DNA from: a virus | IMG/VR virus record: IMGVR_UViG_3300011977_000003 | Coordinates: 1 to 38,504 of that record | Reading direction: 5' to 3' (one strand) | Length of the DNA stretch: 38,504 nucleotides | Shown: piece after piece, positions 1-38,504 of the stretch | How the letters are laid out: every line of letters begins with the position of its first letter | Position numbering within the stretch: position 1 is the stretch's first letter | The notes under the pieces: generated by a model | The model's database searches: none | Told to the model about the DNA's origin: nothing | Seen by the model: the letters and a program-made list of their open reading frames with translations, nothing else | Program-made: the position numbers and the translations under genes

Positions 1-77
1 CTTGTCGGTGATCTGGGTCAGGGCCTTGGCGAACTTGTTCTCCGGGAACTGGACCTTGTACTTGTCGGCCACCCAGA
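1..77. repeat. Terminal direct repeat, copy 1 (circular-assembly overlap)
   Basis: Bases 1..77 match 38428..38504 exactly by direct comparison. Confidence 0.95.
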
Positions 78-1948: not shown

Positions 1949-1969
1949 CCGGGGGCGCAGGGCCCCCGG
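1949..1969 (-). promoter_or_regulatory. GC hairpin downstream of VR2 (putative DGR target-recognition cruciform)
   Basis: Stem ccgggggc (1949-1956) pairs with gcccccgg (1962-1969) around a 5-nt loop. On the minus strand it starts 9 nt after the stop of ORF 1979..2548. There is no T-run, so it is not a canonical terminator. Confidence 0.65.
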
Positions 1970-1978
1970 GATTTATGA

Positions 1979-2548
1979 TCAGTTGATAAGGAAAGCCGGG
2001 CGGACGCCGACGGAGTCCGAGGCGTTCCAGCCGGTGGCAAAACCGGTGACGTTGACGCGGCAGAAATGCGTCGCAGAGTCCTTTCGCTTGTTCTGGAGCC
2101 AGCCCCACTCCCAGCAGTTCTGCCGGAAGGCGATCCGGTTCTTCCGGTCCTTCATGAGCTCCCATTGCTCGCAGCCGTCCGGCTCGAAGTACTCAGCGTC
2201 CTCCTGGTCGAAGATCTCACCGAAGAACGGGATCCGGAGCAGGTCGCCGTTGTCGAACGGGACCATCCTGTCGCCCCAGTCGTCGAAGAGGTCGAGGATC
2301 TCCTTGCTCCTGAGCGTCTCCCTGAGGTCGCTCTCTTCATAGCCGCCCTTGTTGGTGTTCTTCCTGTTCATCGGGTAGGCCTCGTCGAGGTACTGATCCA
2401 GCAGGAAGAGGGCGCCCTTCGGCGTGACCGTCTGGCATGTGGCCGTATAATGGCCGACGCGGATCTGGTCGCCGGTCTGGGTCTCGGTGGTCTTGGTGAG
2501 CGTCTTCCGGTAGACGTCAATGCTGTGCATAGTCTCGAAGATTTCCAT
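1979..2548 (-). CDS. DGR target protein 2: small C-type-lectin-fold-like protein with a variable C-terminus
   Basis: 189-aa ORF with RBS aaggagg before the ATG at 2548. The C-terminus SATHFCRVNVTGFATGWNASDSVGVRPAFLIN aligns to the TR-encoded peptide, with changes only at TR Asn/A-containing codons. No N-terminal hydrophobic signal or TM segment is visible. Confidence 0.85.
   Translation of the reverse strand: MEIFETMHSIDVYRKTLTKTTETQTGDQIRVGHYTATCQTVTPKGALFLLDQYLDEAYPMNRKNTNKGGYEESDLRETLRSKEILDLFDDWGDRMVPFDNGDLLRIPFFGEIFDQEDAEYFEPDGCEQWELMKDRKNRIAFRQNCWEWGWLQNKRKDSATHFCRVNVTGFATGWNASDSVGVRPAFLIN
1991..2077 (-). repeat. DGR variable repeat 2 (VR2)
   Basis: 87-bp block aligned by hand to TR 16064..16150. 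It has 15 mismatches, and all fall at adenines of the TR coding (minus) strand. Confidence 0.85.
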
Positions 2549-9994: not shown

Positions 9995-10426
9995 ATGAAT
10001 GAATTAGGAAAGAAGATCAAGCAGAGGCGCGAAGAGCTTGGCCTCAGCCAGGACGAGCTCGCCCGGATGCTTGGATATAAACACAAGAGCTCGATCAATA
10101 AGATCGAGCTGGGCGCTGCCGATGTTCCCAGGGCGAAGGTCCCGGCCTTCGCGAAGGCGCTGGGCATGACCGCGATCGAGTTCTCCGGATGGACGGAAGA
10201 ACGGAAGGCCCTCAGCTTTTCCTATTGCATGGAGCAGCAGATGAGGATCCTCGGCTGGGTCGTCTTATACGATGCAGACGGGAACGTGATCCTCACCCAC
10301 GAGGGTGCGGAGTATGAGATCACTGAGGAGAGCATGAAAGAACTGGAGAGCCGTGTGGCTCTTTATTTAGATTTCCTTTTGACAGAGTTGACGAAGACCT
10401 CCAGGAAGATCGGAGGCCCGAAGTGA
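9995..10426 (+). CDS. XRE-family HTH repressor (CI-like), no S24 peptidase domain evident
   Basis: 143 aa. LGKKIKQRREELGLSQDELARMLGYKHKSSINKIELG is a classic XRE HTH. It is divergent from the early operon. Confidence 0.85.
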   Translation: MNELGKKIKQRREELGLSQDELARMLGYKHKSSINKIELGAADVPRAKVPAFAKALGMTAIEFSGWTEERKALSFSYCMEQQMRILGWVVLYDADGNVILTHEGAEYEITEESMKELESRVALYLDFLLTELTKTSRKIGGPK

Positions 10427-11934
10427 TCGGCGCGATTTATGCCCGGTACTCGAACGGGCCGAACCAGACAGACCAGTCGATCGAGGGCCAGGTGGCCGAC
10501 TGCCGGGCGTATGCTGAGCGGAACGGGATCCAGATCGTGGAGATCTATGCCGACCGGCACATCTCCGGGAAGAGCATCGTCGGCCGGAACGAGTTCCAGA
10601 GGATGCTGCACGACGCGGAGCAGCATCGCTTCGAGTGCGTGATCGTCTGGAAGATCGACCGCTTCGGCCGGGATCGCCAGGACATTGCCATCTCGAAGAT
10701 GAAGCTGAAGAAGGCAGGCGTCCGCCTTATGTATGCCGAGGAAGCCGTTCCGGAAGGTCCGGAGGGGATCATCCTGGAGAGCGTGCTGGAAGGCCTGGCC
10801 GAGTATTACAGCGCGGACCTGAGGCAGAAGATCCTCCGGGGCATGAGGGAGACCGCGAAGAAGGGCCAGTATTGCGGCCAGCCGCTTCCGATCGGGTACG
10901 CGGTAGACGAGGACCGGCACATCATAATCGACGAGGAGAAGGCTGCCGTCGTCCGTGAGGCCTTCCGGATGCACATCGCCGGAGCCCAGACGAAGGAGCT
11001 GATCGAACTCTTCCGGAAGAACGGGATCACCGGCAGGCGTGGCCGCCCGATCTCCCAGGCCGTGATCTATCGGATGCTGAGGAACGAGAAGTACCTGGGC
11101 CGCTTTGAGATCCAGGGCGTGGAGATCCCCGCCGAGCCGATCATCGACCAGGCGACCTTCGACGAGGCCGCCAGGCATTTCAAAACGAGCCGGAACAATG
11201 CAGCAGGGAGGGCGAAGGTGGACTATTTGCTGAGCTGTAAATGCTTTTGTGGATATTGTGGCGCCATGTTGAACGCTGAGAGCGGCACCAGTAAGACGGG
11301 GAAGGTGTACCACTATTACAAGTGCGGGGCGAAGAAGCGCGGGGCGAAGTGCGAGCTGAAGCCGATCCAGCGCGACCACTTCGAGGACCGCGTGATCGAG
11401 GCGACCGTCCAGGACATGCTGACCGATGACATGATCGGGAAGCTCACGACGCGGATCCTGGAGATCCAGGAGCAGGACGACGCTGCTGATCCGGCCGCCG
11501 CGTATAGGAAGCAGCTGGACTCGAACCGGAAGAAGCAGCGGAACCTACTGGACGCCATAGAGGAAGGGACCGGAGCGAAGGGTCTGGCCGGGCGTCTCGC
11601 TCAGCTGGAAGCTGAAGAGGGGGAGCTGGTCCTGGAGATCGAGCGGGCAGAAATAAAAAAGCCCCGACTCACCGAAGAGGTGGTCGGGGCGTGGCTCCGT
11701 TCGTTCAGGGACGGGGATGTGGACGACGCTGCCTTCCGGCAGCGCCTTGTGGACACGTTCATCGCCCGGATCGAGGTCAGGAACGGCCAGGCGATGATCT
11801 TCTACAACATAAAAGAAAATGGACCGCACTCAAAAGTTCGAGTACGGTCCGAATGGTGGAGCCCGCGCAGCCGTACTCGAACTCGCGAGCCCTTCGTCGC
11901 TGATGGGTATATTATACTGCCCATTGCCATATAA
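10423..11934 (+). CDS. int: Large serine recombinase (phage integrase)
   Basis: 503 aa. Contains the resolvase N-terminal domain (AIYARYS...QSIEGQ), a recombinase domain, a zinc ribbon (CGYCG...YHYYKCGAKKRGAKC) and a coiled coil. The GTG start overlaps the repressor stop (GTGA). Confidence 0.9.
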   Translation: MIGAIYARYSNGPNQTDQSIEGQVADCRAYAERNGIQIVEIYADRHISGKSIVGRNEFQRMLHDAEQHRFECVIVWKIDRFGRDRQDIAISKMKLKKAGVRLMYAEEAVPEGPEGIILESVLEGLAEYYSADLRQKILRGMRETAKKGQYCGQPLPIGYAVDEDRHIIIDEEKAAVVREAFRMHIAGAQTKELIELFRKNGITGRRGRPISQAVIYRMLRNEKYLGRFEIQGVEIPAEPIIDQATFDEAARHFKTSRNNAAGRAKVDYLLSCKCFCGYCGAMLNAESGTSKTGKVYHYYKCGAKKRGAKCELKPIQRDHFEDRVIEATVQDMLTDDMIGKLTTRILEIQEQDDAADPAAAYRKQLDSNRKKQRNLLDAIEEGTGAKGLAGRLAQLEAEEGELVLEIERAEIKKPRLTEEVVGAWLRSFRDGDVDDAAFRQRLVDTFIARIEVRNGQAMIFYNIKENGPHSKVRVRSEWWSPRSRTRTREPFVADGYIILPIAI

Positions 11935-12086: not shown

Positions 12087-13649
12087 TTAGCTGAGCAGCT
12101 TGTTGACCTTGGCCTGCACCCGGGCGTAGTCATAACCGGCAGCAGTCAGGCGGGCCTTGCGGTCCGATCCGTTGCCCCACTTCCCGGCGATCACTTCCTG
12201 GGCCAGCTCGTCGATGGACTTGCTGGATCCGCTGACCAGGGCGTTGACTTTGCTCTGCACGGCGTTGTAGTCGTAGCCTGCCGCTGTGAGCCTGTCCTTG
12301 CGCTCCTGGCCATTTCCCCAGGATCCGGCCAGGACTTCCTTGGCCAGTTCGTCCACGGTCTTCTTGGCCGGTTCCGGAGCCGCCACCAGCTGATTGACGC
12401 GGGCCTGCACGGCGCTGTAGTCATAACCGGCAGCAGTCAGGCGGGCCTTGCGGTCGTCGCCGTTGCCCCAGACGCCTGCCAGGACTTCCCTGGCCAGCTC
12501 CTCGACGCTCTTCCTGGCGCTTCCGGAGCTCTTGCCGTACTTCGGCTTGGCGTAGCCCCGGATGTTCCCGTGGCCGATCTTGCGGGTGGTCCTGCCGACC
12601 ACGCCGCCGCTGATGTTGCCCTCGATCGCGGTGATCATGCCGCCGCTGACCTTCTCGACGATGCCGATGTGGTCAGAGAAGCCGTCGTTCGGCTGGGTGT
12701 TGTCGTCCCAGTTGTAGACGATCAGCCAGCCAGGCTCCGGTGTGACGGTGCCGTCCTCCTCCCAGATCCCGGCCTTCTTGAAGAGCTTCACATGCTCCTC
12801 GACGCCGCACTCCGGACCGCCGATCAGATCGACCGCGCCCAGCTTGATGAAGGCAGCCGAGACGGTAGTGTCGCAGAAGGCGTCGGTGTAGCTGACCTTG
12901 TAGCCTCTGGCCCTTGGCGTGTAGCTGTTGTAGGTGTCAATGATGACGTGGTGCGTCCCGGCCGAGCGGCTGAGCCCGATCCAGGAGCGCATGACGGCCA
13001 GCACGTCCTCAGCTGTCACGCCCTTGACCGCAGTCTCCGGAACGGTGACGGGCTTGCTGGTGTTGCGCTGAGAGCAGTCCACGTTCCCGCTGATGCCGGG
13101 CACGCTGCCCTTGCTGGTGTACTGCCAGATCAGCCAGTCGCCGCTGTAGCTGAGCTTGCTGGCCCACTGAGCGACCCACCAGGAGAACGGCAGCTGTGAA
13201 GCGTCCAGGCGGTTCTTGATCCAGCTGGTCGAAGCGTAGACTCCGGCCGGGATCCCGTTCGCCTGGAGGCGTTCGCAGATGATCCTCAGGAAGCGCGTCC
13301 GGTCGGCTCTGTTGAGCTGATCAGAGCGGCCCTTGCCGCTGCCTTCGGCGTACTCGCTGTCCAGGAAGATCGGCAGCACGAACTTCATGCCCTTGGCCTC
13401 CTGGATGATGAAGTCCGCCTCCTCGATGGCTTCTGCGTCCGTGATGGACGTCGGGAAGAAGTAGAGGGAGAAGGGGATGCCGAGAGCCTCGCAGGCGGCT
13501 CTGTTTTCCTTGTACTTCGTGTCGTAAACGATCCGGCCGTTGCCATAGCCACGGTAGCCCAGCCGGATGATGGCGGCCTCGATGCTGCCCGAGACCGCCT
13601 TCCAGTCGATCGTCCCCTGAAAAGCGGAGACGTCAATGATCGGTTTCAC
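12087..13649 (-). CDS. Modular endolysin: GH25 muramidase + CHAP/NlpC-like peptidase + 3 x CW_7 (Cpl-7) wall-binding repeats
   Basis: The N-terminal IIDVSAFQGTIDW...WQYTS is GH25. The central domain has a Cys...His pattern (AFCDTTVS...DHIGIV). The protein ends with three xELAxEVxAGxWGNGxxRKxRLTAAGYDYxxVQxKVN repeats. Confidence 0.9.
   Translation of the reverse strand: MKPIIDVSAFQGTIDWKAVSGSIEAAIIRLGYRGYGNGRIVYDTKYKENRAACEALGIPFSLYFFPTSITDAEAIEEADFIIQEAKGMKFVLPIFLDSEYAEGSGKGRSDQLNRADRTRFLRIICERLQANGIPAGVYASTSWIKNRLDASQLPFSWWVAQWASKLSYSGDWLIWQYTSKGSVPGISGNVDCSQRNTSKPVTVPETAVKGVTAEDVLAVMRSWIGLSRSAGTHHVIIDTYNSYTPRARGYKVSYTDAFCDTTVSAAFIKLGAVDLIGGPECGVEEHVKLFKKAGIWEEDGTVTPEPGWLIVYNWDDNTQPNDGFSDHIGIVEKVSGGMITAIEGNISGGVVGRTTRKIGHGNIRGYAKPKYGKSSGSARKSVEELAREVLAGVWGNGDDRKARLTAAGYDYSAVQARVNQLVAAPEPAKKTVDELAKEVLAGSWGNGQERKDRLTAAGYDYNAVQSKVNALVSGSSKSIDELAQEVIAGKWGNGSDRKARLTAAGYDYARVQAKVNKLLS
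12090..12509 (-). repeat. Three in-frame CW_7-encoding DNA repeats (about 141-150 nt period)
   Basis: Near-identical stretches such as gtagtcataaccggcagcagtcaggcgggccttgcggtc occur at about 12127 and about 12418, with a diverged middle copy. Confidence 0.8.
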
Positions 13650-14440: not shown

Positions 14441-14758
14441 TTATACCTCCTCCAGATTAATGTCGGCCATCATCGCGACGTATTCGATGTTGGCCTGGGT
14501 CTTCATCTCAGCGAGCTCCTGAGCAGTCAGGTCGCGCAGGATGAACCAGTAGTTCGCCCCGACCTTCGTGATCTGGACGAGCTCCATGTTCTCGTGGACC
14601 TCCTCGTGCTCGCCGTCGCTGATCGTCACTGTGCTGAGGTTGTCGGTGAAGACGTCCTCGGTGATCTTCTTGCTGCTGATGTAGTTGTTCCCGTTGAGGC
14701 CGAGCCCCTCCAGGGTTGTCCCATCAGCCAGCGTAATCGTCCATGTCCTTTTTTCCAT
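14441..14758 (-). CDS. Hypothetical protein (XkdW-position)
   Basis: 105-aa ORF with RBS aaaggag before the ATG at 14758. It overlaps the 3' tail of the RT ORF. Confidence 0.6.
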   Translation of the reverse strand: MEKRTWTITLADGTTLEGLGLNGNNYISSKKITEDVFTDNLSTVTISDGEHEEVHENMELVQITKVGANYWFILRDLTAQELAEMKTQANIEYVAMMADINLEEV

Positions 14759-15972
14759 GTTGGTCTCCTTTCAAACAGTTGATAGAATAGCAGGCTTAGG
14801 TTGCTGATCTGCTGGCGCGACATACGCCTCCAGTTTCCGCCCAGCCAGGACTTGAAGGAGTTCTCGATCTCCTCGTAGGTCATGGCCCCAGCTTCGAGCT
14901 TTCGCTTGTAGGCCTTCAGCTTGCGGCGCTCTCTGGTGACGCTCTTCGGGTTGATCTTTCGGATCACTCTGCCGGTCTCTGTCAGAGAGTAGCCGATCTG
15001 TAGGTAACGATAGAAGCCGGACAGCTTGCAGATCCGTGTCTTCTTTTCGTTGATGATAATGCCGTACTCCTCGGCGATCTGCTTCACGCCTTCCAGGACA
15101 GCCTGAAGGAGCTCCCTGCTGTCACTGATCACATGTGTGTCGTCGGTGTATCTGCCGAAGAGCTGGCAGCCCATCACGATCGAGATGTAGTTGTCGATCC
15201 GGTACGGGTGGATGATGCCGACGTCCTGGGAGACTTGGTTCCCTATGTCGACGCCCTTCCTGAGCATCTTCTCGCCGGTCAGTGCTCCCGGGTCCACGAA
15301 GCGGTTCATCGTCGGGTCGACCTTGCCGTGATAGAGTTCCGCGATCTCTTCATCAGAGAAGCGGGAGACATCCAGCTCGAAGGTCTTGAAGATGTCACCG
15401 ATCAGCTCCATGGCCACGTCCGCGACGTCTGGATCCTGTTCCCTTCGGATGAAGTAGTCGAGGGTGGCGAGGATCGGCGTGTGCCGTATGTTGCCATAGT
15501 AGCCGGAGAAGTCGATGAAAAGCACCCAGCCGTCATTGCTGCCGGTCTTCATGTAATAGTGGTGCAGATCTTCCTCGAAGTGTCTCCGGTGGAAGCTGAC
15601 GCCCTTGCCCTTCTGGCTCGCGCTGTTGGTATAGGCCAGATATTTGTGGATCGACGGGCTGATCACTTCATCGCATAGCAGATGATTGACCGCCTTGTCT
15701 CTCATGATGTTGCTGGTGATGTACCGGCTGTGGCCCCGCTCATTGATCGGGAACTTCGCGCCGGGTGCCGGTTTGTAGGTGCCGTGCATGATCTCGTCCT
15801 GGATCTTCGCCGTCTGGAGCAGCTGGGTCATTTCATACAGTTGGGTCTTGTACTTGAAGCGGCCGCCCTTCATGGCCTTGGTGCCTGCCTCATAGATCAG
15901 GTTTGCATCATACAATTTGTTCATAAAAATTAACCACGCAATAGTGACAGCGGTCGTAACCGGCCACGTCAT
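14626..15972 (-). CDS. DGR reverse transcriptase
   Basis: Contains FIDFSGYYGNI (motif A), DIGNQVSQ (the DGR-specific GxxxSQ motif) and GRYTDD (YxDD). It lies directly downstream of the TR. The start may be the ATG at 15924 (MNKLYDANLIY) rather than 15972, and neither has a clear SD. The last ~44 aa are low complexity and overlap the next gene. Confidence 0.9.
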   Translation of the reverse strand: MTWPVTTAVTIAWLIFMNKLYDANLIYEAGTKAMKGGRFKYKTQLYEMTQLLQTAKIQDEIMHGTYKPAPGAKFPINERGHSRYITSNIMRDKAVNHLLCDEVISPSIHKYLAYTNSASQKGKGVSFHRRHFEEDLHHYYMKTGSNDGWVLFIDFSGYYGNIRHTPILATLDYFIRREQDPDVADVAMELIGDIFKTFELDVSRFSDEEIAELYHGKVDPTMNRFVDPGALTGEKMLRKGVDIGNQVSQDVGIIHPYRIDNYISIVMGCQLFGRYTDDTHVISDSRELLQAVLEGVKQIAEEYGIIINEKKTRICKLSGFYRYLQIGYSLTETGRVIRKINPKSVTRERRKLKAYKRKLEAGAMTYEEIENSFKSWLGGNWRRMSRQQISNLSLLFYQLFERRPTWKKGHGRLRWLMGQPWRGSASTGTTTSAARRSPRTSSPTTSAQ

Positions 15973-16063
15973 GGTTGGTATTTATCGGCATGGCTGCCGA
16001 ACGGATAACTCTTCCTTTCCCATTGCCGTGCGCGGGTTCCAGCCCGATAGGATGCACGGTTGT

Positions 16064-16156
16064 GAAATCCGGGCGGACGCCGATGGAGTTCGAGGCGTTC
16101 CAGTTGTTGGCATTACCGTTGTTGTTGACGTTGCAGAAATTCGTCGCTGACTGAAC
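16064..16156 (-). repeat. DGR template repeat (TR)
   Basis: 93 bp located between the avd-like stop (16167) and the RT. On the minus strand it encodes VQSATNFCNVNNNGNANNWNASNSIGVRPDF with 10 AAC/AAT codons. It matches VR1 and VR2 except at its adenines. Confidence 0.9.
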
Positions 16157-16166
16157 ATAACAAGAG

Positions 16167-16715
16167 TTACCCGGTGGTGTTGCGCTTTGGTCCTTTCAAA
16201 TACTTCTTAAAACGGTTGTCAGACTGCCGCAGGCTCTTGATTGTTTTGAACAGGTGCTCGATCTCCAGCACGATGCTGGTGTATTTGTTTTTATCTGCCG
16301 GAAGGACCTCTGCTATGTATTGCAGCTCGTCCTGGAGCATATTGCAGCACTCCATCGCTTTGTCCCACTGTAGACGTCTTTCCTCGAACTCTGGCCAGTA
16401 TTCCGGCCAGATCGTGTTCGCCGCTCTCATGTGGACGCTGATGTCCTGGCAGAAGGTGAGCACCCTGGTCCGTTCCTGCTGGATGAACCAGAGATTGAAG
16501 TCTTCCTCCTGTTCGCGGATCCTTTTGGCCAGCTCCTCCCGCTCTCCATCGTCCACGACATAGGCGGTCACGGCCTTGATGTGCTTCTCGAAGCGTTTCT
16601 GGCTGTAACCGAAGGTAGCCATCAGCTCGGCAGTGATCCGTTTTCTGATGTTGTAGACCAGGTGCTGAGCGCGGAGTGGTGACTCCGAGCGCTCGCTCTT
16701 TGGGATGTCTGACAT
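16167..16715 (-). CDS. avd: Avd-like DGR accessory protein (helical, basic C-terminus)
   Basis: 182-aa ORF in the canonical position between the target gene and the TR. The sequence looks predominantly helical, with a basic tail (RFKKYLKGPKRN). The assignment rests on synteny plus weak motif resemblance. Confidence 0.6.
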   Translation of the reverse strand: MSDIPKSERSESPLRAQHLVYNIRKRITAELMATFGYSQKRFEKHIKAVTAYVVDDGEREELAKRIREQEEDFNLWFIQQERTRVLTFCQDISVHMRAANTIWPEYWPEFEERRLQWDKAMECCNMLQDELQYIAEVLPADKNKYTSIVLEIEHLFKTIKSLRQSDNRFKKYLKGPKRNTTG

Positions 16716-16736
16716 GCTTGGTTATCTCCTTATCAT

Positions 16737-16757
16737 CCCGGGCCACGAGGGCCCGGG
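16737..16757 (-). promoter_or_regulatory. GC hairpin downstream of VR1 (putative DGR target-recognition cruciform)
   Basis: Stem cccgggcc (16737-16744) pairs with ggcccggg (16750-16757) around a 5-nt loop. On the minus strand it starts 9 nt after the target stop. No T-run. Confidence 0.65.
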
Positions 16758-16766
16758 GATTGTTGA

Positions 16767-17738
16767 TCAATAGATCAGGAAAGCCGGGCGGACGCCGATG
16801 GAGAGCGAGGCGCCCCAGGCGTCGGCACCACCGTTGTGGTCGACGTTGCAGAAAAGCGTCGCTGACTGAACATCACGGAGCCACCAGTTCTGTCTGTTGC
16901 AGATCAGATCCGGACGCGCCTGGAAAAGCGCGAGCTGAGTCTTGTCTGCCCCGGTGTCGTAGCCGTTCTGAGCGCCCCCGCCCCAGGCGTGGGATCCGTA
17001 GACCATGTGCTCGTTCATGAGGTCGATCTGGCTATCCTGCCATGCCCAGCCGGAGCTCGCGCCGTTGGAGACGGCGTTGGCCAGCAGGACACGGTGGCTG
17101 AGGATGTGATTCGCTCCAAAGTCCGCCTTGACCGTGGCCAGAGCATCGGCCAGGCCGCTCGTCTTCATCTTGCTGCCGAAGTAGGAGCCGGTCGTGACGT
17201 TGGTGTCATTCATGACGCCGTTGTAAAGAGCTTTGTCCGGGAAGACCAGCATGTGGTGGGTGGTCAGCTCTGTGTCTCCGCAGTGGAGACGATAGTCAGC
17301 ATGAGCCGCCCAGTACTTCCGGCCGTTAATCGTCCAGTAGCCTCCGACGCGGACCTTGTCGAACCTGCCCGCTCTGATGTCAGCGGACTGCTCATCTGTG
17401 AAGCTGGTACCAAGATCATGCTCGAAGGGCATGGCGTTGGCGCGGGTCGCTCCGTCCGTTTCGAGGGCTTTGATCAGGCCCTCGATCGTCTCAATGCTGA
17501 GGGCGTTTTCTTCGGTTTTGCCGAAGATCTCATTGATCGCTCCGATCAGGCTGTCCTTGTCCTCCGTTTCGAGTGTGGCCAGATCTCCGCCGATGAAAGT
17601 CTTCAGGGCTGAGAGAGGCAGGGCCTTGACGCCGGTGCCGTCTGCCAGTCTGACGAGGACGATGTCCGCGCCGCTGGAGACCGCGCTGATCGCGGGCTCC
17701 TCGTTGAAGCGTCTGCCGTTTTCAATGTCAATCTGCAT
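16767..17738 (-). CDS. DGR target protein 1: tail-fibre/receptor-binding protein with a C-type-lectin-fold-like variable C-terminus
   Basis: 323 aa and the last gene of the tail module. The C-terminus VQSATLFCNVDHNGGADAWGASLSIGVRPAFLIY aligns to the TR-encoded peptide, with changes only at Asn/A-containing codons. Confidence 0.85.
   Translation of the reverse strand: MQIDIENGRRFNEEPAISAVSSGADIVLVRLADGTGVKALPLSALKTFIGGDLATLETEDKDSLIGAINEIFGKTEENALSIETIEGLIKALETDGATRANAMPFEHDLGTSFTDEQSADIRAGRFDKVRVGGYWTINGRKYWAAHADYRLHCGDTELTTHHMLVFPDKALYNGVMNDTNVTTGSYFGSKMKTSGLADALATVKADFGANHILSHRVLLANAVSNGASSGWAWQDSQIDLMNEHMVYGSHAWGGGAQNGYDTGADKTQLALFQARPDLICNRQNWWLRDVQSATLFCNVDHNGGADAWGASLSIGVRPAFLIY
16779..16871 (-). 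repeat. DGR variable repeat 1 (VR1)
   Basis: 93-bp block at a constant offset of 715 from the TR. It has 14 mismatches, and all fall at adenines of the TR coding strand. Confidence 0.9.
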
Positions 17739-17753: not shown

Positions 17754-18731
17754 TTATGCGTATGCGTATTTCCAGTCGACCATGATCACATTGTCATCGT
17801 CGTCCAGGATCATGTTGCCGTCGTCATCCCTGAGCGGTGCGAAGTAGTCGTTGTGGATGGCCATATACTCCGCCAGGGTGAGACGTTCCTCGTGGTCTGT
17901 CGTGATGTTGATCAGATGACCGGCCACGTCCTCGTCCAGAAGGTCCTGCACTGTAGCAAACCAGGCGTTGAAGGCGTTCTGGCTCGTGCGCTGGAACTCT
18001 CTGAGGTTCTCGGTGATCTCGGTGAGGTTGGCCTCTCCTCGATCCTCCAGGTCCGTGATGTAGTTGTTGATCGTGGTCGTGTAGCCGTCGTAGGCCTGCT
18101 GGGCCATGTCCAGGAACTCTTCGTAGCTGGCGTCCGACTTGTCCACGAACTCGTCATAGAAGGCATTGAACTGGGCGAAGAAGACCTCCGTGTCAATGCT
18201 GTCAATGAACTGGGTGATGTAGCCGCAGACGGAGCTGTCCGGTCTGGTGTCTGTGATCGCGCTCTGGGTGATCGTGGCCATGTTGGTGCTGATCCGGATC
18301 GTGGCCAGGCTCAGCTCGTAGTAGTCGCCGCTGGTCGGTCGGATCAGCTCCGGAGCGACCGGAGACGACGCAGCCGTGCCGGTCTTGATGATGATCTCGC
18401 AGAGCCGGTCTCTGTAGTTGACGCGCAGGACGACGCGGTCGATCCTGCTGTACTGGGTGGGAGCTGTCGCCAGCTCGTAGGTGCTCTCCGCCGCGTCATA
18501 GGCGAAGGCGCCATTGATCAGGCCGAAGCCCGGGCGGACCTTAACGGTCAGGCCGGTGTCACCGGCGAGGACCTGGAAGCAGTCCGCTGGCCTGGCCAGC
18601 ACTCCGTTGGTGAGCAGCTTCGCGAACAGAAGCCGGAAAAGCTCCGACGTTTCTGCCCGGTCGAAGATCGGCATACCTTCGGAGTCGACTCCGGTGATCT
18701 CGGAGTCAAAATAGCCGTATCTCATAGCCAT
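17754..18731 (-). CDS. Tail fibre/baseplate structural protein
   Basis: 325 aa (MAMRYGYFDSEITGVDSEGMPIF...). It lies between the Tal-position gene and the DGR-diversified fibre. The function is assigned by position only. Confidence 0.55.
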   Translation of the reverse strand: MAMRYGYFDSEITGVDSEGMPIFDRAETSELFRLLFAKLLTNGVLARPADCFQVLAGDTGLTVKVRPGFGLINGAFAYDAAESTYELATAPTQYSRIDRVVLRVNYRDRLCEIIIKTGTAASSPVAPELIRPTSGDYYELSLATIRISTNMATITQSAITDTRPDSSVCGYITQFIDSIDTEVFFAQFNAFYDEFVDKSDASYEEFLDMAQQAYDGYTTTINNYITDLEDRGEANLTEITENLREFQRTSQNAFNAWFATVQDLLDEDVAGHLINITTDHEERLTLAEYMAIHNDYFAPLRDDDGNMILDDDDNVIMVDWKYAYA

Positions 18732-19849: not shown

Positions 19850-20770
19850 CTACACCCCCAGATACTTCGGCGTATAGAAGAGGTTGACGTCCAGGTTCGT
19901 GTAGTTCTCGTCCGCGTCGTACTCCAGATAGTTGTCGCCCACGGCGAGCTTGAAGGGCTCGCTCTTGCGGTCGATGTGCTGGTAGTAGTTGACGCCGTTC
20001 AGAGTGATGACCTGGTGCCGGTCGTTCGTGTCGATCAGCAGGATGTCGCCCTGCTGCATGGCCACGTTGACCCTCATATACTGGCCGGTGCCGGTGTTGG
20101 TGATCTTCGGGTTGGTGACTGGGCCTCTGGTGGCCACGAACTGGATCTGGACGCCCGTCGGGACGTCTCCGTCGTTGGCCAGCACGACCTCCTTGTACAG
20201 CGTGCGGTAGCCCATTGTCATGCCGCCCAGCAGCATCCCTCTGGCCTTGTCCGGGTAGTCCAGCTTGCCGCTGGTCATCCGGGTGCTCAGCATCCTCCAC
20301 GGGAAGGCGAAGAGCGCCGAGATGTTGGCCATGTTCTTGCCATAGTTGTCGACGTTGAGCATGTACGGATCCGGGCAGAGCAGGTCGACCAGGATCTTCA
20401 GCTTGTTGTCCATGTTCCGGACGGAAGCGAAGGTCCAGCCCTCCAGCTCGTACTCGATGTTCCGGCTCACGCCCATGTTGGTGATCAGTGCCTTGCCCGT
20501 GTACTTCGGGTTGAAGAACTTGATCACGTTGGCCCGGTTTTCCGGGTTGTTCTTGTTGCTCTTGAAGCTGGCCTCGATGTGGATGGGCCTCGGCTTGATC
20601 TTCTTGCCGTCGACGCTCGCCCCGTCGACCAGGGCGTTGTCTGATGTGCTGATGTCAAGCTCGGAGGACTCCAGTCCGGTCACTGCCGTGATGTCGATGT
20701 CCTCACCGGGTCCCATCCTCAGCGTCTTGCCGTTGCAGGTCAGCTCGATGGTTAATGTATTTTTTGTCAT
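19850..20770 (-). CDS. Distal tail protein (Dit-like)
   Basis: 306 aa. ATGA overlap with the tape measure stop. This is the conserved position downstream of the TMP. Confidence 0.65.
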   Translation of the reverse strand: MTKNTLTIELTCNGKTLRMGPGEDIDITAVTGLESSELDISTSDNALVDGASVDGKKIKPRPIHIEASFKSNKNNPENRANVIKFFNPKYTGKALITNMGVSRNIEYELEGWTFASVRNMDNKLKILVDLLCPDPYMLNVDNYGKNMANISALFAFPWRMLSTRMTSGKLDYPDKARGMLLGGMTMGYRTLYKEVVLANDGDVPTGVQIQFVATRGPVTNPKITNTGTGQYMRVNVAMQQGDILLIDTNDRHQVITLNGVNYYQHIDRKSEPFKLAVGDNYLEYDADENYTNLDVNLFYTPKYLGV

Positions 20771-23655
20771 TTCACACCTCCGACCATGTTCCGCAGCGCC
20801 TCGCGCTGTGCCTTGCTCACCTCGGACGGCGTAGCCACGGGCACGTTGTAGGTGTTCTCCTGCTCGAAGTGGTTGTCGTTGTTGACGATCGTGCCGACCG
20901 TGGACATGGCTCTCAGGTTCGCCGGTCCCGCTGCATTGAGCGCGAGGGTTCCGGCAGAGGCCGAGATCGCCGTCTGCATCTGGCCGACCATCTTGGCCGC
21001 CTGGGCCTTCATGTCCTTAATGGCCCGAGGCATGGAGTCCTCGAAGCCCTCAGCGATGCCGGGCGGGAGCCAGTGGCCGACCTCGTCCCGGAACTCCTTG
21101 GACGGTGAACTGATGCCCAGGGCGCTCTTGGCGCTGTCCAGGAGGCTCGTGGCCAGGTTGCTGACCTTATTCTTCAGCCAGTCCCAGCCGGAGCTGATGC
21201 CGTTCCAGAGGCCGCTCACGATGTCGCTGCCGATGCTGGTGATCCTGCTGGGCAGGTCCTTCAGTCCGTTCACGACGGAGTCGAAGAGCTGCTTCGCCGC
21301 AGCAGCGCCCTTGCTGGCCAGTTCTGAGCCCCAGGAGACGACCTTCGAGGCCGCGTTGCTGAGGTGTGTCCAGATCTGTCCGGGCAGCTGTGAGAGCGTG
21401 CTGGAGACCTTGCTGAGCATATTGCTGGCAGCGGTCGAAGCGTTCGAGACCATCTGCTGGCCCCAGCTGATGACCTTGTTCACGGCGTTGACCAGGTGCG
21501 TCCAGATCTTCCCCGGAAGTTCGGAGACGATGCTGTTCACCTTCGAGAGCATGTTGCTCATGGCCGTGGAGGCGTTGCTGAGCATCTGCTGACCCCACTG
21601 GATCAACTTGTTCACGGTGTTGACGAGATGGGTCCATACTTTTCCGGGAAGCTGCTGCACGATCGAGTTGATCTTGCTGAGCATGTTGGTCATGGCGGTG
21701 CTCGCGTTCGAGAGCATCTGCTGGCCCCAGGCGATCAGCTTGTTGATCGTGTTGACCAGGTGCGTCCAGACCTTCCCAGGAAGCTGCTGCACTATGCTGT
21801 TGATCTTGCTCAGCATGTTGGTCATCGCCGTGGAGGCGTTGCTGAGCATCTGCTGGCCCCACTGGACCAGTCGGGTGACGGTATTCACCAGGAAGGTCCA
21901 GACCTTCCCCGGCAGCTGGCTGACGATGGTGCTGATCTTGCTCAGCATGTTGGTCATCGCGGTGCCTGCTGACTGGAGCATGTTCTGGCCCCATTCCAGG
22001 AGCTTCGCGAGTGCATCGGAGAAGACCTCCGCCATCTTACCCGGCAGAGCGATCAGTGCATTGATCACGCCCTCCACCAGGAAGTTGCCCTGCTCCTGCA
22101 TGACCGTCGAAGGCGATGCTATACCGAAGAAGCTCTTGAAGGCGTCGAGGATAGCCCGGCCGATGTCCAGGATCGCCTGCCCGATGTTAGGCAGGGCGGA
22201 GATCAGGCCGTTGACGATGCCCTTCACCAGGTCCACACCGGCCTGGAGGAGCTTCGGGATCTGCTTGATCAGTGACGTGACCATGTAGGCCACGAGCTTC
22301 ACGATTGCAGGCAGGAGCTTCGGGAGTGCCTTGCCGATGCCCTGCACCAGGGCGGTGATGATCCGGCCAGCTGTCTCCAGGAAGCGGCCGGTGCCGTTGC
22401 CATCGATGAAGCTGGTGATCTTCTCGACGATCTTGTCCGCCGCGCCCTCCCAGTCGAAGTTCTCCAGCTTTTCGGCCGCGCTCTCCATCATGCCGAGGAT
22501 TGCGTCGCCGACTCCGGCCAGGCCGTTCTCGCTGAAGCCCTTCTGGATCTCCGCCAGCGCTCCGGCAGCCGCGTCGGCTGCATCGGCCAGCGGTCCCGCT
22601 GCCATGCTGTAGAGGCTGGTGGCGATGTTGCTCAGGCTGGTCTTGATCTGCTGGCTCTTGAACTCCAGCGTGTCGCTCACCTTAGCGTAGGCGTCACCGA
22701 CGACGTCGGCGTCCGTGCCCATCTGCTCCAGGTTGCTGTGGAAGACCTCGCCCTCCTGGGTGAAGATCGACATGGCCGCCTTGCCTGCCTCGATCGAGCT
22801 GAACATGTCGACCATGGACACGCCGGAGGCGTCTGCCGATGCCTGCATCATCCCCAGCACTTCGTCCAGGGTCGCGCCCGCGTCCATCATCTCGTTGAAG
22901 GACATGCCCGCGTACTTGCTGCCCTCGGCAGCCTTTTCGAGGTTCTTGGCGGCGACCGTGCCGTTCTTGCCCAGCTCAGCGATCAAGCTGTTCAGCTGGG
23001 TGGTGGCCTGTGCTGTAGGAGTACCCTGTGCCGTCATAGTGGCCAGGGAGGCGCCGACCTGTTCAAACGATACACCGAAGGCGGCAGCGGTCGGCGTGAC
23101 CTGTGCCAGGCTCGCGCCCAGCTCGCCCACGGTGGTGATGCCGAGGTTCTGGGTCTGGATCAGGACCTTCTGGACCTTGTCCAGAGACTCCTCGCCGCTC
23201 ATGCCGTAGGCGTTCATCGTCTTGGCAGTAGCCGAGAGGGCCGTGTCCACGTCAGTGAAGCCAGCAGCGGCCAGCTTCGCGGACTTCTCCAGTGTGAAGC
23301 CGAGATCCTCAGCAGGTACGGAAGCGGACAGCGCGGAGTAGGCTGCCTCAGCCAGGCCGTCAGCGGCCAGGCCGGTCGCAGAAGACAGATCCAGGATCGT
23401 GTCCGAGAGCTTCCCGAACTCCTCGTCCGTTCCGGTGAAGAGCGTGGAGACCTTCGCCATGGATGTCTCGAAGGACATGCCAGAGTTCAGGGCCTCCTTG
23501 CCCAGGTTGACGACGGCGTCCACGGCCTTCGTCATAAGATTGCCAGCGAACACGCCCAGCGCGTTCTTGGCGACGCTGCCGAGCGAGCTGGTGTTTTTCT
23601 CCAGCCCGCTCGTGTCCAGCGAAGTATCAAATTTTAGGGTTCCGTCTGATGCCAT
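20767..23655 (-). CDS. Tail tape measure protein
   Basis: 962 aa, Ala/Gly/Ser-rich and helical, with internal tandem repeats. It follows the chaperone genes. Confidence 0.9.
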   Translation of the reverse strand: MASDGTLKFDTSLDTSGLEKNTSSLGSVAKNALGVFAGNLMTKAVDAVVNLGKEALNSGMSFETSMAKVSTLFTGTDEEFGKLSDTILDLSSATGLAADGLAEAAYSALSASVPAEDLGFTLEKSAKLAAAGFTDVDTALSATAKTMNAYGMSGEESLDKVQKVLIQTQNLGITTVGELGASLAQVTPTAAAFGVSFEQVGASLATMTAQGTPTAQATTQLNSLIAELGKNGTVAAKNLEKAAEGSKYAGMSFNEMMDAGATLDEVLGMMQASADASGVSMVDMFSSIEAGKAAMSIFTQEGEVFHSNLEQMGTDADVVGDAYAKVSDTLEFKSQQIKTSLSNIATSLYSMAAGPLADAADAAAGALAEIQKGFSENGLAGVGDAILGMMESAAEKLENFDWEGAADKIVEKITSFIDGNGTGRFLETAGRIITALVQGIGKALPKLLPAIVKLVAYMVTSLIKQIPKLLQAGVDLVKGIVNGLISALPNIGQAILDIGRAILDAFKSFFGIASPSTVMQEQGNFLVEGVINALIALPGKMAEVFSDALAKLLEWGQNMLQSAGTAMTNMLSKISTIVSQLPGKVWTFLVNTVTRLVQWGQQMLSNASTAMTNMLSKINSIVQQLPGKVWTHLVNTINKLIAWGQQMLSNASTAMTNMLSKINSIVQQLPGKVWTHLVNTVNKLIQWGQQMLSNASTAMSNMLSKVNSIVSELPGKIWTHLVNAVNKVISWGQQMVSNASTAASNMLSKVSSTLSQLPGQIWTHLSNAASKVVSWGSELASKGAAAAKQLFDSVVNGLKDLPSRITSIGSDIVSGLWNGISSGWDWLKNKVSNLATSLLDSAKSALGISSPSKEFRDEVGHWLPPGIAEGFEDSMPRAIKDMKAQAAKMVGQMQTAISASAGTLALNAAGPANLRAMSTVGTIVNNDNHFEQENTYNVPVATPSEVSKAQREALRNMVGGVK
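21334..21993 (-). repeat. Five tandem 132-bp (44-aa) repeats inside the tape measure gene
   Basis: The unit is WGQQMLSNASTAMTNMLSKINSIVQQLPGKVWTHLVNTxNKLIx. The Trp codons of successive units fall at 21993, 21861, 21729, 21597 and 21465, and the partial next unit starts at 21333. Confidence 0.9.
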
Positions 23656-36279: not shown

Positions 36280-36737
36280 CTGGCACCACCTCCTTCCTCT
36301 TCGTCGTGTTCTTTATGCCAGCGGGCGTGCTCCGCTTGGCTTGCAAAAATCATTAAATTCTCGGGTCTGTTGTCCTTCTTGTTTCTGTTAATGTGATGCA
36401 CGACCTCGCCCTTTTTCAGTGGCCGCCCGAGTATTTGCTCAGCCACGGTTCGATGTTCGTGTCTTCCGTTCACTTTTCTGTAGGTGTCAGCGGTTCCAGT
36501 GTCAAGCCTTGCCTTGCTTATCTTTTCCCGGACTTCCTTGGTCATTTTCTCTGCATTGTGTTGTCGATTGTATTCGCTCAGATGCGGGTGTCGTGTTATA
36601 GGACGCCCCTCTGGGTTGTACTTCTTCGATCGGTATCTCGCCTGACAGTCTCTGCAGCAGAAGGCCATCTTCTTCCCGACCATCTGGCTCGGGTATCTCT
36701 GGAACTCCTTGCCGCACCAGTCACATGTGTATTTCAT
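36276..36737 (-). CDS. HNH endonuclease
   Basis: I chose the start ATG at 36737 (RBS gggaggg). This gives MKYTCDWCGKEF...CCRDCQ (zinc-finger-like) and HRTVAEQILGRPLKKGEVVHHINRNKKDNRPENL (HNH). Its stop overlaps the ATG of the SNF2 fragment (ATGA). Confidence 0.85.
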   Translation of the reverse strand: MKYTCDWCGKEFQRYPSQMVGKKMAFCCRDCQARYRSKKYNPEGRPITRHPHLSEYNRQHNAEKMTKEVREKISKARLDTGTADTYRKVNGRHEHRTVAEQILGRPLKKGEVVHHINRNKKDNRPENLMIFASQAEHARWHKEHDEEEGGGAR

Positions 36738-37406: not shown

Positions 37407-38504
37407 TTCGGCGGACGAAGACTCTCTGCTTGCCCAGATCCTTGATCCTCATGGTCGCGTTCGCGGGTCTTTCCCACTCCGGCAGCCTGGCCATGATGCT
37501 CGCGATCTCGTCGCCGTCGCGCCTTGTCCATTGGTTCTGGATCTTGCCGAAGCACTCGCAGAAGATCTCCATCGCGCTGACCTTTGTCCGCTGCATGGTG
37601 CCCACCTGCTGCTTCGGATCCAGGACGTCGCGCTGGCTGAAGTAGTCCTTGCGCTTGCCGAGGTCCCAGCTGTACCAGTCCTCCGGCAGCAGGGTGTCGA
37701 GGTAGTCGATCACCTGGCCCTCACGTTCGTCATACATGAGCGCCGCCTGCTGGGCCTTGGCCGCTTCCTTCTCCATCTCTGCATCCAGGAAGCTGTCCTC
37801 GCCCTCGGTGGCGTACATGGCCGCCTCGGCCCAGATCTGTGCCCTGGTGGCCTCTGTCATCTCCCAGACAGAGAGGCGGCCTCCGCCATCGACCGAGACG
37901 GGCCAGAAGCGCCGGTTGCCGGTGGCGTCCCTCAGGAAGCCGGTGGTGCTGTTGGTCGTTCCGCAGATGATCGCGGTCCTCGGGTGCCTCTCGACCACGC
38001 GGCCGTAGGCTGCCCGGTACTCGTCCACCTGCCGGGAGAGGAAGCCCTTCATCACGTCGATGTCAGCCTTCCGGGTTCCCTGCATCTCGCCGATCTCCAT
38101 GATCCAGACGCCCTGGAGCTTCTCGGCCGCCGTCTTGTCCCTGGTGTCTGCCAGGCTCAGGCTGTCGCTGAACCACTTGCCGCCCAGCTTCCGGAGCAGG
38201 GTGCTCTTGCCGATGCCCGGCTTCCCGTCGAGGACCAGCACGGTGTCGAATTTGCAGCCGGGCTCCCATACACGCTGAACCGCGCCGATCAGGGTCTTCC
38301 TCGTGACGGCCCGGACGTAGGGCGTGTCCTCCGCGCCCAGGTAGTCCACCAGCAGGGTGTCCACCCTCGGCACGCCGTCCCACTCCGGCAGCTGCCGTAT
38401 GTAGTCCCGCAGCGGATTGAAGCGCCGCTTGTCGGTGATCTGGGTCAGGGCCTTGGCGAACTTGTTCTCCGGGAACTGGACCTTGTACTTGTCGGCCACC
38501 CAGA
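37378..38504 (-). CDS. DNA primase/helicase, C-terminal part (VirE-family P-loop NTPase); continuation of 1..1434
   Basis: Contains the Walker A motif GKPGIGKST and the Walker B-like motif WIMEIGEM. The M at 38499 in the track is an internal GTG (Val), because the frame stays open to the window end and joins 1..1434. Confidence 0.85.
   Translation of the reverse strand, partial: WVADKYKVQFPENKFAKALTQITDKRRFNPLRDYIRQLPEWDGVPRVDTLLVDYLGAEDTPYVRAVTRKTLIGAVQRVWEPGCKFDTVLVLDGKPGIGKSTLLRKLGGKWFSDSLSLADTRDKTAAEKLQGVWIMEIGEMQGTRKADIDVMKGFLSRQVDEYRAAYGRVVERHPRTAIICGTTNSTTGFLRDATGNRRFWPVSVDGGGRLSVWEMTEATRAQIWAEAAMYATEGEDSFLDAEMEKEAAKAQQAALMYDEREGQVIDYLDTLLPEDWYSWDLGKRKDYFSQRDVLDPKQQVGTMQRTKVSAMEIFCECFGKIQNQWTRRDGDEIASIMARLPEWERPANATMRIKDLGKQRVFVRRSGNGNEGGR
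38428..38504. repeat. Terminal direct repeat, copy 2 (circular-assembly overlap)
   Basis: Exact 77-bp match to 1..77. It lies inside a coding frame that continues through the junction. Confidence 0.95.

Follow-up and report, generated by a model that had tools for sequence, protein, structure and literature searches.

The prototype of the diversity-generating retroelements (DGRs) is that of Bordetella phage BPP-1 (mtd-avd-TR-brt, TR being the template repeat and brt the gene of the reverse transcriptase, RT). DGRs in which one template serves two targets of the DUF6273 type have already been published for Roseburia phage Shimadzu and for Faecalibacterium phages. The element described here is a further example of this two-target type, well supported and ordinary among them, and it is encoded in the IMG/VR virus record IMGVR_UViG_3300011977_000003, whose 38,504 nucleotides (nt) constitute the window that was analysed. 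Taken as a whole, the evidence makes it very probable that the locus is an intact phage DGR, recently and probably currently active, with one template and two targets.

Shimadzu (LR596903) shows the same order of a tail-end DUF6273 target, Avd, TR and RT, and it possesses a second variable repeat (VR) in a DUF6273-only protein of about 200 residues (orf43); this homologue of target 2 of the present phage is a product of the early/recombination module. Diversification of both Shimadzu VRs has been demonstrated experimentally, in cultures as well as in mice (Cornuault et al., bioRxiv 10.1101/575076). The accessory proteins of the two systems are homologous; however, the Avd of Shimadzu has 136 amino acids (aa) and lacks the insertion of about 40 aa found in the present protein. 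Besides, the small target of Shimadzu adjoins Erf and single-stranded DNA-binding protein (SSB) genes whereas target 2 adjoins the gene of DNA polymerase A, and Shimadzu is a myovirus with a Lachnospiraceae host, whereas the tail genes of the present phage are of siphovirus type and Acutalibacter is the host of its closest relative.

One TR with two DUF6273 targets has also been described in the Faecalibacterium phages Lelie/CP11 and Toutatisvirus (PMC11792537, bioRxiv 10.1101/2024.10.15.618418) and in the nd4/nd12 "tentaclin" phages (PMC10743442). The targets of the Faecalibacterium phages have been called "large and small" (PMC11792537), and in Toutatisvirus the second one is a core gene with function not known, located 17.5 kb from the TR (bioRxiv 10.1101/2024.10.15.618418). 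The models of DUF6273 published for this group are C-type-lectin-like and place the VR at the C-terminal end of the domain; on the other hand, some of the primary targets are Hoc-like or contain Ig domains and others bear an N-terminal VR, and in Toutatis the gene order differs, the target being downstream of the RT.

The closest relative is Acutalibacter phage Fontainebleau (ON453893), a prophage of A. muris KB18 from the OMM12 consortium, which is about 84% identical in nucleotides across the cassette and has the same genome organisation, TR, VR1, VR2, hairpins and spacer. Neither its record (ON453893) nor the paper describing it annotates or mentions a DGR. With BPP-1 the present locus shares the target-avd-TR-spacer-RT order, adenine-specific differences between TR and VR at AAY codons, and a GC hairpin soon after the VR in which the structure of the stem (not its sequence) and the loop are conserved. 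Also common to the two are a spacer some 140 nt long and two duplexes formed by that spacer, one with the 3' end of avd and the other with the 3' end of the TR; the RT of BPP-1 (bRT) is moreover the best match among solved RTs. The differences are that the Avd, targets and RNA of BPP-1 have no detectable sequence similarity to the present ones, that BPP-1 has one target instead of two, and that Mtd takes the place of the DUF6273 target domain.

An initial annotation made from the sequence alone had described a complete DGR on the minus strand, comprising the open reading frames (ORFs) 14626..15972 (RT), 16167..16715 and 16767..17738, all of which are present as given. The TR, VR1, RT and accessory parts of that description were borne out, whereas a second, remote target was missing from it. 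The exact pairwise alignment of TR (16064-16156) with VR1 (16779-16871) agrees with the 93-nt match previously noted: it is ungapped, lies on the minus strand at an offset of 715 nt and contains 14 mismatches (seven A>G, five A>C and two A>T), none of them at a non-adenine position of the TR. As the TR block of 93 nt holds 25 adenines, the hypergeometric probability of this bias is P = 3e-10. The homology ends sharply on both sides, as had been claimed, and it reaches 2 nt further 5' (16158/16873). The peptides quoted for TR and VR1 and the count of ten AAC/AAT (AAY) codons are exact, and the TR, which had been placed about 10 nt after the stop codon of the avd-like ORF, is correctly located and begins 9 nt past it.

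The third TR-like copy, VR2, was found by a genome-wide repeat search at 14,073 nt from the TR. It differs from the TR at 15 positions over 87 nt, every one of them a TR adenine (P = 5e-11). Between VR1 and VR2 there are 18 differences, all of them at adenine sites. Each VR ends four codons ahead of the stop codon of its target. Nearly all the adenines of the TR (25 of 26) fall in codon position 1 or 2, no TR codon can be mutated to a stop codon, and about 1.5e14 peptide variants are reachable. The A at TR position 16068 is C in all four VRs of the present phage and Fontainebleau (VR1 and VR2 of each); this is probably a fixed TR/VR difference near the start of the complementary DNA (cDNA), comparable to the IMH* type (IMH, initiation of mutagenic homing), and not a product of mutagenesis. 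A third VR was considered and ruled out, the TR-like copies in the genome being three in total.

The RT matches Pfam RVT_1 and phrog_1423 ("reverse transcriptase", 141.8 bits), and the motifs cited in the initial annotation are present in its ORF, namely FIDFSGYYGNI, RYTDD (YTDD) and DIGNQVSQ, of which IGNQVSQ fits the [ILV]GxxxSQ motif 4. The closest solved structure is 8ub7_A (a 328-aa RT), where IGSLTSQ aligns with IGNQVSQ and the YxDD motifs are aligned as well; this chain is identified as Bordetella bRT because its YMDD occupies residues 213-216, as reported for Brt (PMC3240598). Models of other RT classes score far below their cut-offs: the NCBIfam group II intron model reaches 47.7 bits (cut-off 300), the retron model 15 (cut-off 235), the defence-associated RT (DRT) models are included in a maximum of 20.6 bits (cut-offs 200-550), and PADLOC returned generic RT matches only, with at most 49 bits. 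Motifs, match to bRT and profile scores support an RT of the DGR type, and the scores speak against a group II intron, retron or defence RT. Both observations on which the initial annotation had made the DGR interpretation depend, the distribution of mismatches over the TR bases and the class of the RT, came out in favour of a DGR. The nearest phage RTs are those of Fontainebleau (80% identical) and Shimadzu (32%), followed by those of nd4/nd12 and the Faecalibacterium phages (23-27%), and most of these phages are published DGR carriers. Translation probably starts at ATG 15924 (MNKLYDA...), since ATG 15972, where the longest ORF begins, is not conserved in Fontainebleau. At its other end the RT ORF overlaps the next gene (14441..14758) by 133 nt (14626-14758, its last 45 codons or so). 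This neighbouring gene encodes 105 aa and has a good ribosome-binding site, and the overlapping tail of the RT, rich in Arg, Ser, Thr and Pro, looks like an out-of-frame read-through.

The same pattern recurs among relatives. In 80 related IMG/VR loci, a TR/VR pair was found in all 71 that retain the upstream sequence, and 1019 of their 1052 mismatches (97%) are at A. Sixteen contigs contain both the cassette and the small target gene; in 15 of them the VR2 corresponds to the TR of the same contig, adenines accounting for 213 of the 217 mismatches, and the sixteenth is cut at the contig end. Variation is concentrated where a DGR would place it: among 25 close relatives of target 2 the column entropy is 1.22 bits in the residues encoded by the VR and 0.16 bits elsewhere, and target 1 has three nearest relatives (95-96% identical), in which residues 291-314 hold 9-12 of the 14-15 differences. 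The VRs of Fontainebleau likewise differ from those of the present phage at adenine sites. The two phages also have TRs that differ at three non-adenine sites, 19 (T>C), 40 (C>T) and 43 (T>C). In either phage both VRs carry the base of their own TR at these sites, which indicates that information has moved from the TR to both VRs since the split from Fontainebleau. The features of the locus are collected in Table 1.

Table 1. Positions in the window of the parts of the retroelement, of its RNA and target-site elements and of the endolysin gene
Feature	Position	Strand	Remarks
TR, template repeat	16064..16158	-	Non-coding; 26 adenines; 10 AAY codons in the VR frame
VR1, variable repeat, 3' end of target 1	16779..16873	-	14/14 mismatches at TR adenines
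VR2, second variable repeat, 3' end of target 2	1991..2077	-	15/15 mismatches at TR adenines
DGR reverse transcriptase (putative DGR type)	14626..15924	-	432 aa from ATG 15924; RVT_1, phrog_1423, motifs; longest ORF from 15972
Accessory protein, divergent, Avd-like	16167..16715	-	182 aa; predicted four-helix bundle with insertion of about 40 aa
Target gene 1, last gene of the tail module	16767..17738	-	323 aa; C-terminal half (residues 149-322, approximately) = DUF6273
Target gene 2, standalone DUF6273 protein	1979..2548	-	189 aa; Pfam DUF6273 26.4 bits; phrog_21980
Spacer (Sp) RNA, from TR to RT start	15925..16063	-	139 nt; covariation-supported fold
5' strand of TR-bracketing duplex	16163..16172	-	GGGTAACTCT; includes the avd stop codon; pairs with 16003-16012
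3' strand of TR-bracketing duplex, inside Sp	16003..16012	-	AGAGTTATCC; pairs with 16163-16172
Helices H1/H2	16067-16054 with 16031-16016	-	TR 3' end; beside invariant GGGAAAGGA (16021-16013)
Hairpin H4	16000-15985	-	RNAalifold
Three-part stem H5-H7, just before RT start	15976-15932	-	RNAalifold
GC-rich block at VR1 3' end, candidate IMH-like	16784..16796	-	GGCGTCCGCCCGG; same in TR (16069-16081) and VR2 (1996-2008)
ATC-N7-ATC-N5-ATC motif between VR1 end and hairpin	16758..16775	-	Includes the stop codon; conserved in the family
ATC-N7-ATC-N5-ATC motif downstream of VR2	1970..1987	-	Conserved in the family
Hairpin/cruciform after VR1	16737..16757	-	8-bp GC stem CCCGGGCC/GGCCCGGG; 5-nt loop CTCGT
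Hairpin after VR2	1949..1969	-	8-bp GC stem CCGGGGGC/GCCCCCGG; 5-nt loop CCTGC
Endolysin	12087-13649	-	GH25 muramidase, CHAP and three C-terminal CW_7 cell-wall-binding repeats

Target 1 matches Pfam DUF6273 with E 8.6e-5 and 22.9 bits, just under the cut-off of 23.5 bits, which target 2 exceeds, and most relatives of both proteins carry PF19789. Residues 149-322 of target 1 and residues 34-188 of target 2 align in hhalign with 97.7% probability, over the whole domain, so that target 2 is essentially the isolated C-terminal domain of target 1. The C-type-lectin-fold receptor-binding tip proposed in the initial annotation may be present, as suggested by the DUF6273 match and by the published models that report such a fold. 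Target 1, whose gene closes the tail module, presumably serves in receptor binding or adhesion, but it could instead be a diversified adhesin for ligands not belonging to the host (mucus or glycans), or have another virion function. This alternative is unlikely. In its favour, the tail-fibre PHROG match of the N-terminus of target 1 is weak (E 3e-4), and published DUF6273 targets include Hoc-like/Ig-domain "tentaclins", proposed to bind environmental ligands (PMC10743442; bioRxiv 10.1101/2024.10.15.618418). Against it, target 1 has no Ig domains, and its gene is the last of the tail module, directly after the genes of Dit, of a Sipho_Gp37-like protein and of a protein of 325 aa that has fibre-collar matches.

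Target 2 is a single-domain paralogue co-transcribed with replication genes. Its gene starts 11 nt after the stop codon of DNA polymerase A and has its own ribosome-binding site (AAGGAGG), and the same gene order is found in Fontainebleau and in a prophage; the protein is 28% identical to orf43 of Shimadzu (E 5e-11). No signal peptide is apparent at its N-terminus, as judged by eye only, with no predictor run. This absence, the strong ribosome-binding site of its own and the maintenance of a homologous small target in the early gene block of distant phages (Shimadzu and 15 of 16 relatives) raise the rather improbable alternative that target 2 is a non-virion protein, expressed early and acting as an intracellular or released binding protein. 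If this were true, the tail protein would not be the sole product diversified by the DGR: a host-takeover or counter-defence factor, or a secreted lectin, would be hypermutated alongside it, and phages would be using DGR hypermutation for more than receptor binding. The role of this conserved small DUF6273 target within a replication module is a point of interest of the locus, and the OMM12 prophage offers a possible test system.

The accessory protein had been called avd-like in the initial annotation, a designation that is supported by a structural model and by a profile alignment to the Avd of Shimadzu, but not by any Pfam match. Searches of the protein against Pfam, NCBIfam, PHROG and the sequences of the PDB gave no match; its family (174 close matches, 789 clusters at 50% identity) is unannotated, and a Pfam scan of 49 members gave scattered chance matches, one of which touches PF05635 (E 0.015). 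The AlphaFold2 (AF2) model is a four-helix bundle (helices 15-49, 56-101, 107-137 and 139-172) with a predicted local distance difference test (pLDDT) score of 79. Its best natural matches in Foldseek are 2rld and 2gsc, of the S23/IVP family, with probabilities of 0.97-0.99 and a TM-score normalised to the target of about 0.65; 2rld is annotated as S23 ribosomal protein family, and Avd has been called S23-like in the paper on the bRT-Avd structure (bioRxiv 10.1101/2023.10.23.563531). A diverse profile of the accessory family, built from a broader and exhaustive search, can be aligned over its full length to the protein annotated as Avd in Shimadzu (130 columns; hhalign 98.1%, E 1.2e-13), whereas a narrow profile gave 14%. 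Relative to the Avd of Shimadzu, for which no Pfam or PDB match was obtained either, the insertion of about 40 residues lies between helices 1 and 2.

By position, predicted fold and homology to an annotated Avd, the protein is therefore regarded as Avd-like, with no PF05635 membership at the sequence level. It is quite improbable that it is an unrelated helical protein sharing with Avd only its place in the cassette, without being its functional equivalent. That alternative draws on the missing sequence or profile link to PF05635 or to a solved Avd, on the insertion, and on an isoelectric point of 8.4, less basic than that of a typical Avd (9.7 in Shimadzu). It is weakened by the full-length profile match to the protein in the Avd position of Shimadzu, by best natural fold matches within the very family that Avd resembles, and by strict linkage, the accessory gene adjoining the TR/VR pair in 71 of 71 related loci. 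Since this family of proteins of about 175 aa is missed by Pfam, DGR finders that depend on PF05635 would under-annotate such cassettes.

The RNA of the Bordetella DGR comprises the TR flanked by about 20 nt of avd and a spacer of 140 nt (bioRxiv 10.1101/2023.10.23.563531). In its structure an 11-bp avd:Sp duplex adjoins the template:primer duplex, and the spacer forms, at its 3' end, a long stem to which the RT is bound (bioRxiv 10.1101/2023.10.23.563531). The spacer of the present phage is 92% identical to that of Fontainebleau, compared with about 84% for the region. RNAalifold, applied to the spacers of 22 diverse loci, predicted 35 base pairs, 25 of them with compensatory double changes; 96.6% of the alignment cells are paired, against 80% in shuffled alignments and about 45% with slid partners, and the covariation score of 0.529 (0.198 in the shuffles) was reached by none of 500 shuffles. 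The long-range duplex and the remaining spacer helices were tested on two separate alignments. In the 10-bp duplex around the TR, pairing holds in 97.7% of cells and seven of the ten pairs are doubly changed, with a score again reached by 0 of 500 shuffles; in Fontainebleau this duplex shows the compensatory pair TGACTCTT/AAGAGTCA. A further RNAalifold helix, H3 (3 bp, GGA/UCC), was discarded, as it shows no variation and its 3' arm is part of the 10-bp duplex, which is better supported. Thus, the TR-bracketing duplex and the spacer fold known from the Bordetella cryo-EM structure were recovered by covariation in an unrelated sequence background.

Three kinds of DNA element accompany the target sites. 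The GC-rich block at the 3' end of VR1, which is repeated in TR and VR2, is a candidate for an IMH-like role. Downstream of both VRs lies an ATC-periodic motif that overlaps the stop codon; in the family it takes the form ATC-N6/7-(G/A)ATC-N5/7-ATC, often with GATC. This motif might be part of target recognition or might provide Dam-type methylation sites, and it is not described in BPP-1. The hairpins begin 21 nt past each VR, and the TR has none. Within the family, the stems after VR1 differ widely in sequence yet stay paired, and the loop is CTTGT in 15 of 26 distinct sequences; likewise, the hairpins after the VR2s have variable paired stems and a conserved loop. For BPP-1, Guo et al. reported that the structure of the hairpin stem matters and not its sequence, while the sequence of the loop is also important (PMC3240598), and the consensus hairpin has a 4-nt GRNA loop and lies 4-34 bp past the VR (PMC3240598). 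The target hairpins of this family obey the same rule of a variable stem and a conserved loop, but with a different loop, the 5-nt CTTGT. They were also considered as typical terminators, and this was ruled out because there is no T-run after them on the coding strand.

A mechanism can be proposed on these grounds and by analogy with BPP-1. The transcript would span the last codons of the accessory gene, the TR and the spacer of 139 nt. In its folded state the TR would be enclosed by the 10-bp duplex, and the 3' end of the TR would pair with spacer nucleotides next to the invariant GGGAAAGGA. The RT, together with the Avd-like protein as a putative four-helix bundle, would be primed in cis on this RNA and would copy the TR into cDNA with misincorporation opposite adenines. 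The cDNA would then replace the VR at either of the sites, which would be marked by the GC-rich 3' block, the ATC-periodic motif and the GC hairpin with its conserved 5-nt loop. The outcome could be up to about 1e14 variants of a surface patch of some 25 residues on the DUF6273 domain (reported as C-type-lectin-like) of two proteins. Within this scheme, the priming chemistry, the complex of Avd and RT, the use of the hairpins in homing, and the fold and ligands of the targets are proposals. To the initial annotation these results add a second target, the divergence of the Avd, the rule followed by the hairpins and the architecture of the RNA.

Several points weigh against the reading of the locus as an intact and active DGR with an Avd-like helper and receptor-binding targets. 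The case for activity in the present population is a comparative one, drawn from relatives. The C-terminus of the RT is uncertain, because its ORF runs 133 nt into the next gene. Profiles of the accessory family (37 and 49 relatives) did not match PF05635 or the solved Avd (4DWL and the 8ub7 complex), and the Foldseek E-value of about 0.2 is weak, as for any helical bundle. The hairpin loop has 5 nt (CYYGY) instead of the 4-nt GRNA required in BPP-1, the latter being a consensus of proteobacterial phages. As for the targets, the AF2 model of target 1 has a pLDDT of 45 (from 42 homologues, all at least 74% identical), profile searches of both target families against solved structures found no significant relative, and the presence of either protein in the virion and its binding to a receptor are hypothetical.

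Some of these points bear on whether the cassette is a recently inactivated relic whose repeats record past retrohoming, which is very unlikely. Inactivation does occur in the lineage: the RT of Fontainebleau has a 1-nt insertion in a G-run (ON453893.1, about 36280-36380, corresponding to about 14890 here) that shifts the frame, for which reason it is annotated at 341 aa, and VR1 of that phage has four non-adenine mismatches. The frameshift is either a real inactivation or a sequencing error. The RT ORF of the present phage also has the odd tail that overlaps the next gene. Nevertheless, in comparison with Fontainebleau the RT remains in frame throughout the conserved C-terminal region, there is no non-adenine mismatch in either VR, and all the cis elements are intact. 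Finally, that the repeats are ordinary paralogous sequences diverged by positive selection or recombination, with no retroelement involved, is effectively refuted and has practically no probability left: the targets do share a whole homologous domain and not merely the repeat, but the differences are confined to adenines (P of about 1e-10 per VR), one copy is non-coding and lies between an Avd homologue and an RT, and 71 loci show the same pattern with 97% of mismatches at A.

The intact DGR thus favoured belongs to a complete genome. An exact direct repeat of 77 nt is found at both ends of the window (1-77 and 38428-38504), which indicates a circular or terminally redundant assembly and a phage genome of 38,427 bp; a VapE-like primase/helicase gene spans the junction of the genome ends. 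The G+C content is 60% and almost every gene is on the minus strand. A serine integrase (10423..11934, plus strand) identifies the phage as temperate, and it belongs to a common group of temperate gut phages. The present analysis provides a fully dissected DGR for such phages, including the Acutalibacter muris prophage of the widely used OMM12 mouse consortium. No match was obtained in an Rfam scan (at gathering thresholds) or in a tRNA scan of the whole genome. The replication module around target 2 encodes DNA polymerase A, an Enc34-type SSB, a PD-(D/E)XK nuclease and the VapE-like primase/helicase. In a related prophage (GCA_910586795.1, contig CAJUIU010000001.1, 118928-139497) the gene order matches, with PolA, a 189-aa DUF6273 gene and VapE, and this prophage is integrated beside smpB via a serine recombinase, which suggests that this is a conserved attachment region for the phage group.

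The cassette had been placed at the end of the tail module, and this position was confirmed: upstream of target 1 are the genes of the tape-measure protein, Dit, the Sipho_Gp37-like protein and the 325-aa protein, and downstream of the cassette there are small ORFs followed by the holin region and the GH25-CHAP-CW_7 endolysin. The 325-aa protein (17754-18731, minus strand), directly upstream of target 1, matches "head protein" PHROGs over the N-terminal part and, at the C-terminal end, a PHROG labelled "tail collar fiber protein"; its homologue in Fontainebleau is named "head protein". Its location suggests that PHROG-based annotation has mislabelled what is probably a component of the tail fibre or baseplate. 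The architecture of the endolysin fits a Gram-positive host among the Clostridia, and its CW_7 part contains DNA repeats of 131 nt at 12096-12517. The tape-measure gene (20767..23655) also contains tandem repeats, of 132 nt (44 aa), at 21274-21933, with the unit ...QWGQQMLSNASTAMTNMLSKINSIVQQLPGKVWTHLVNT...

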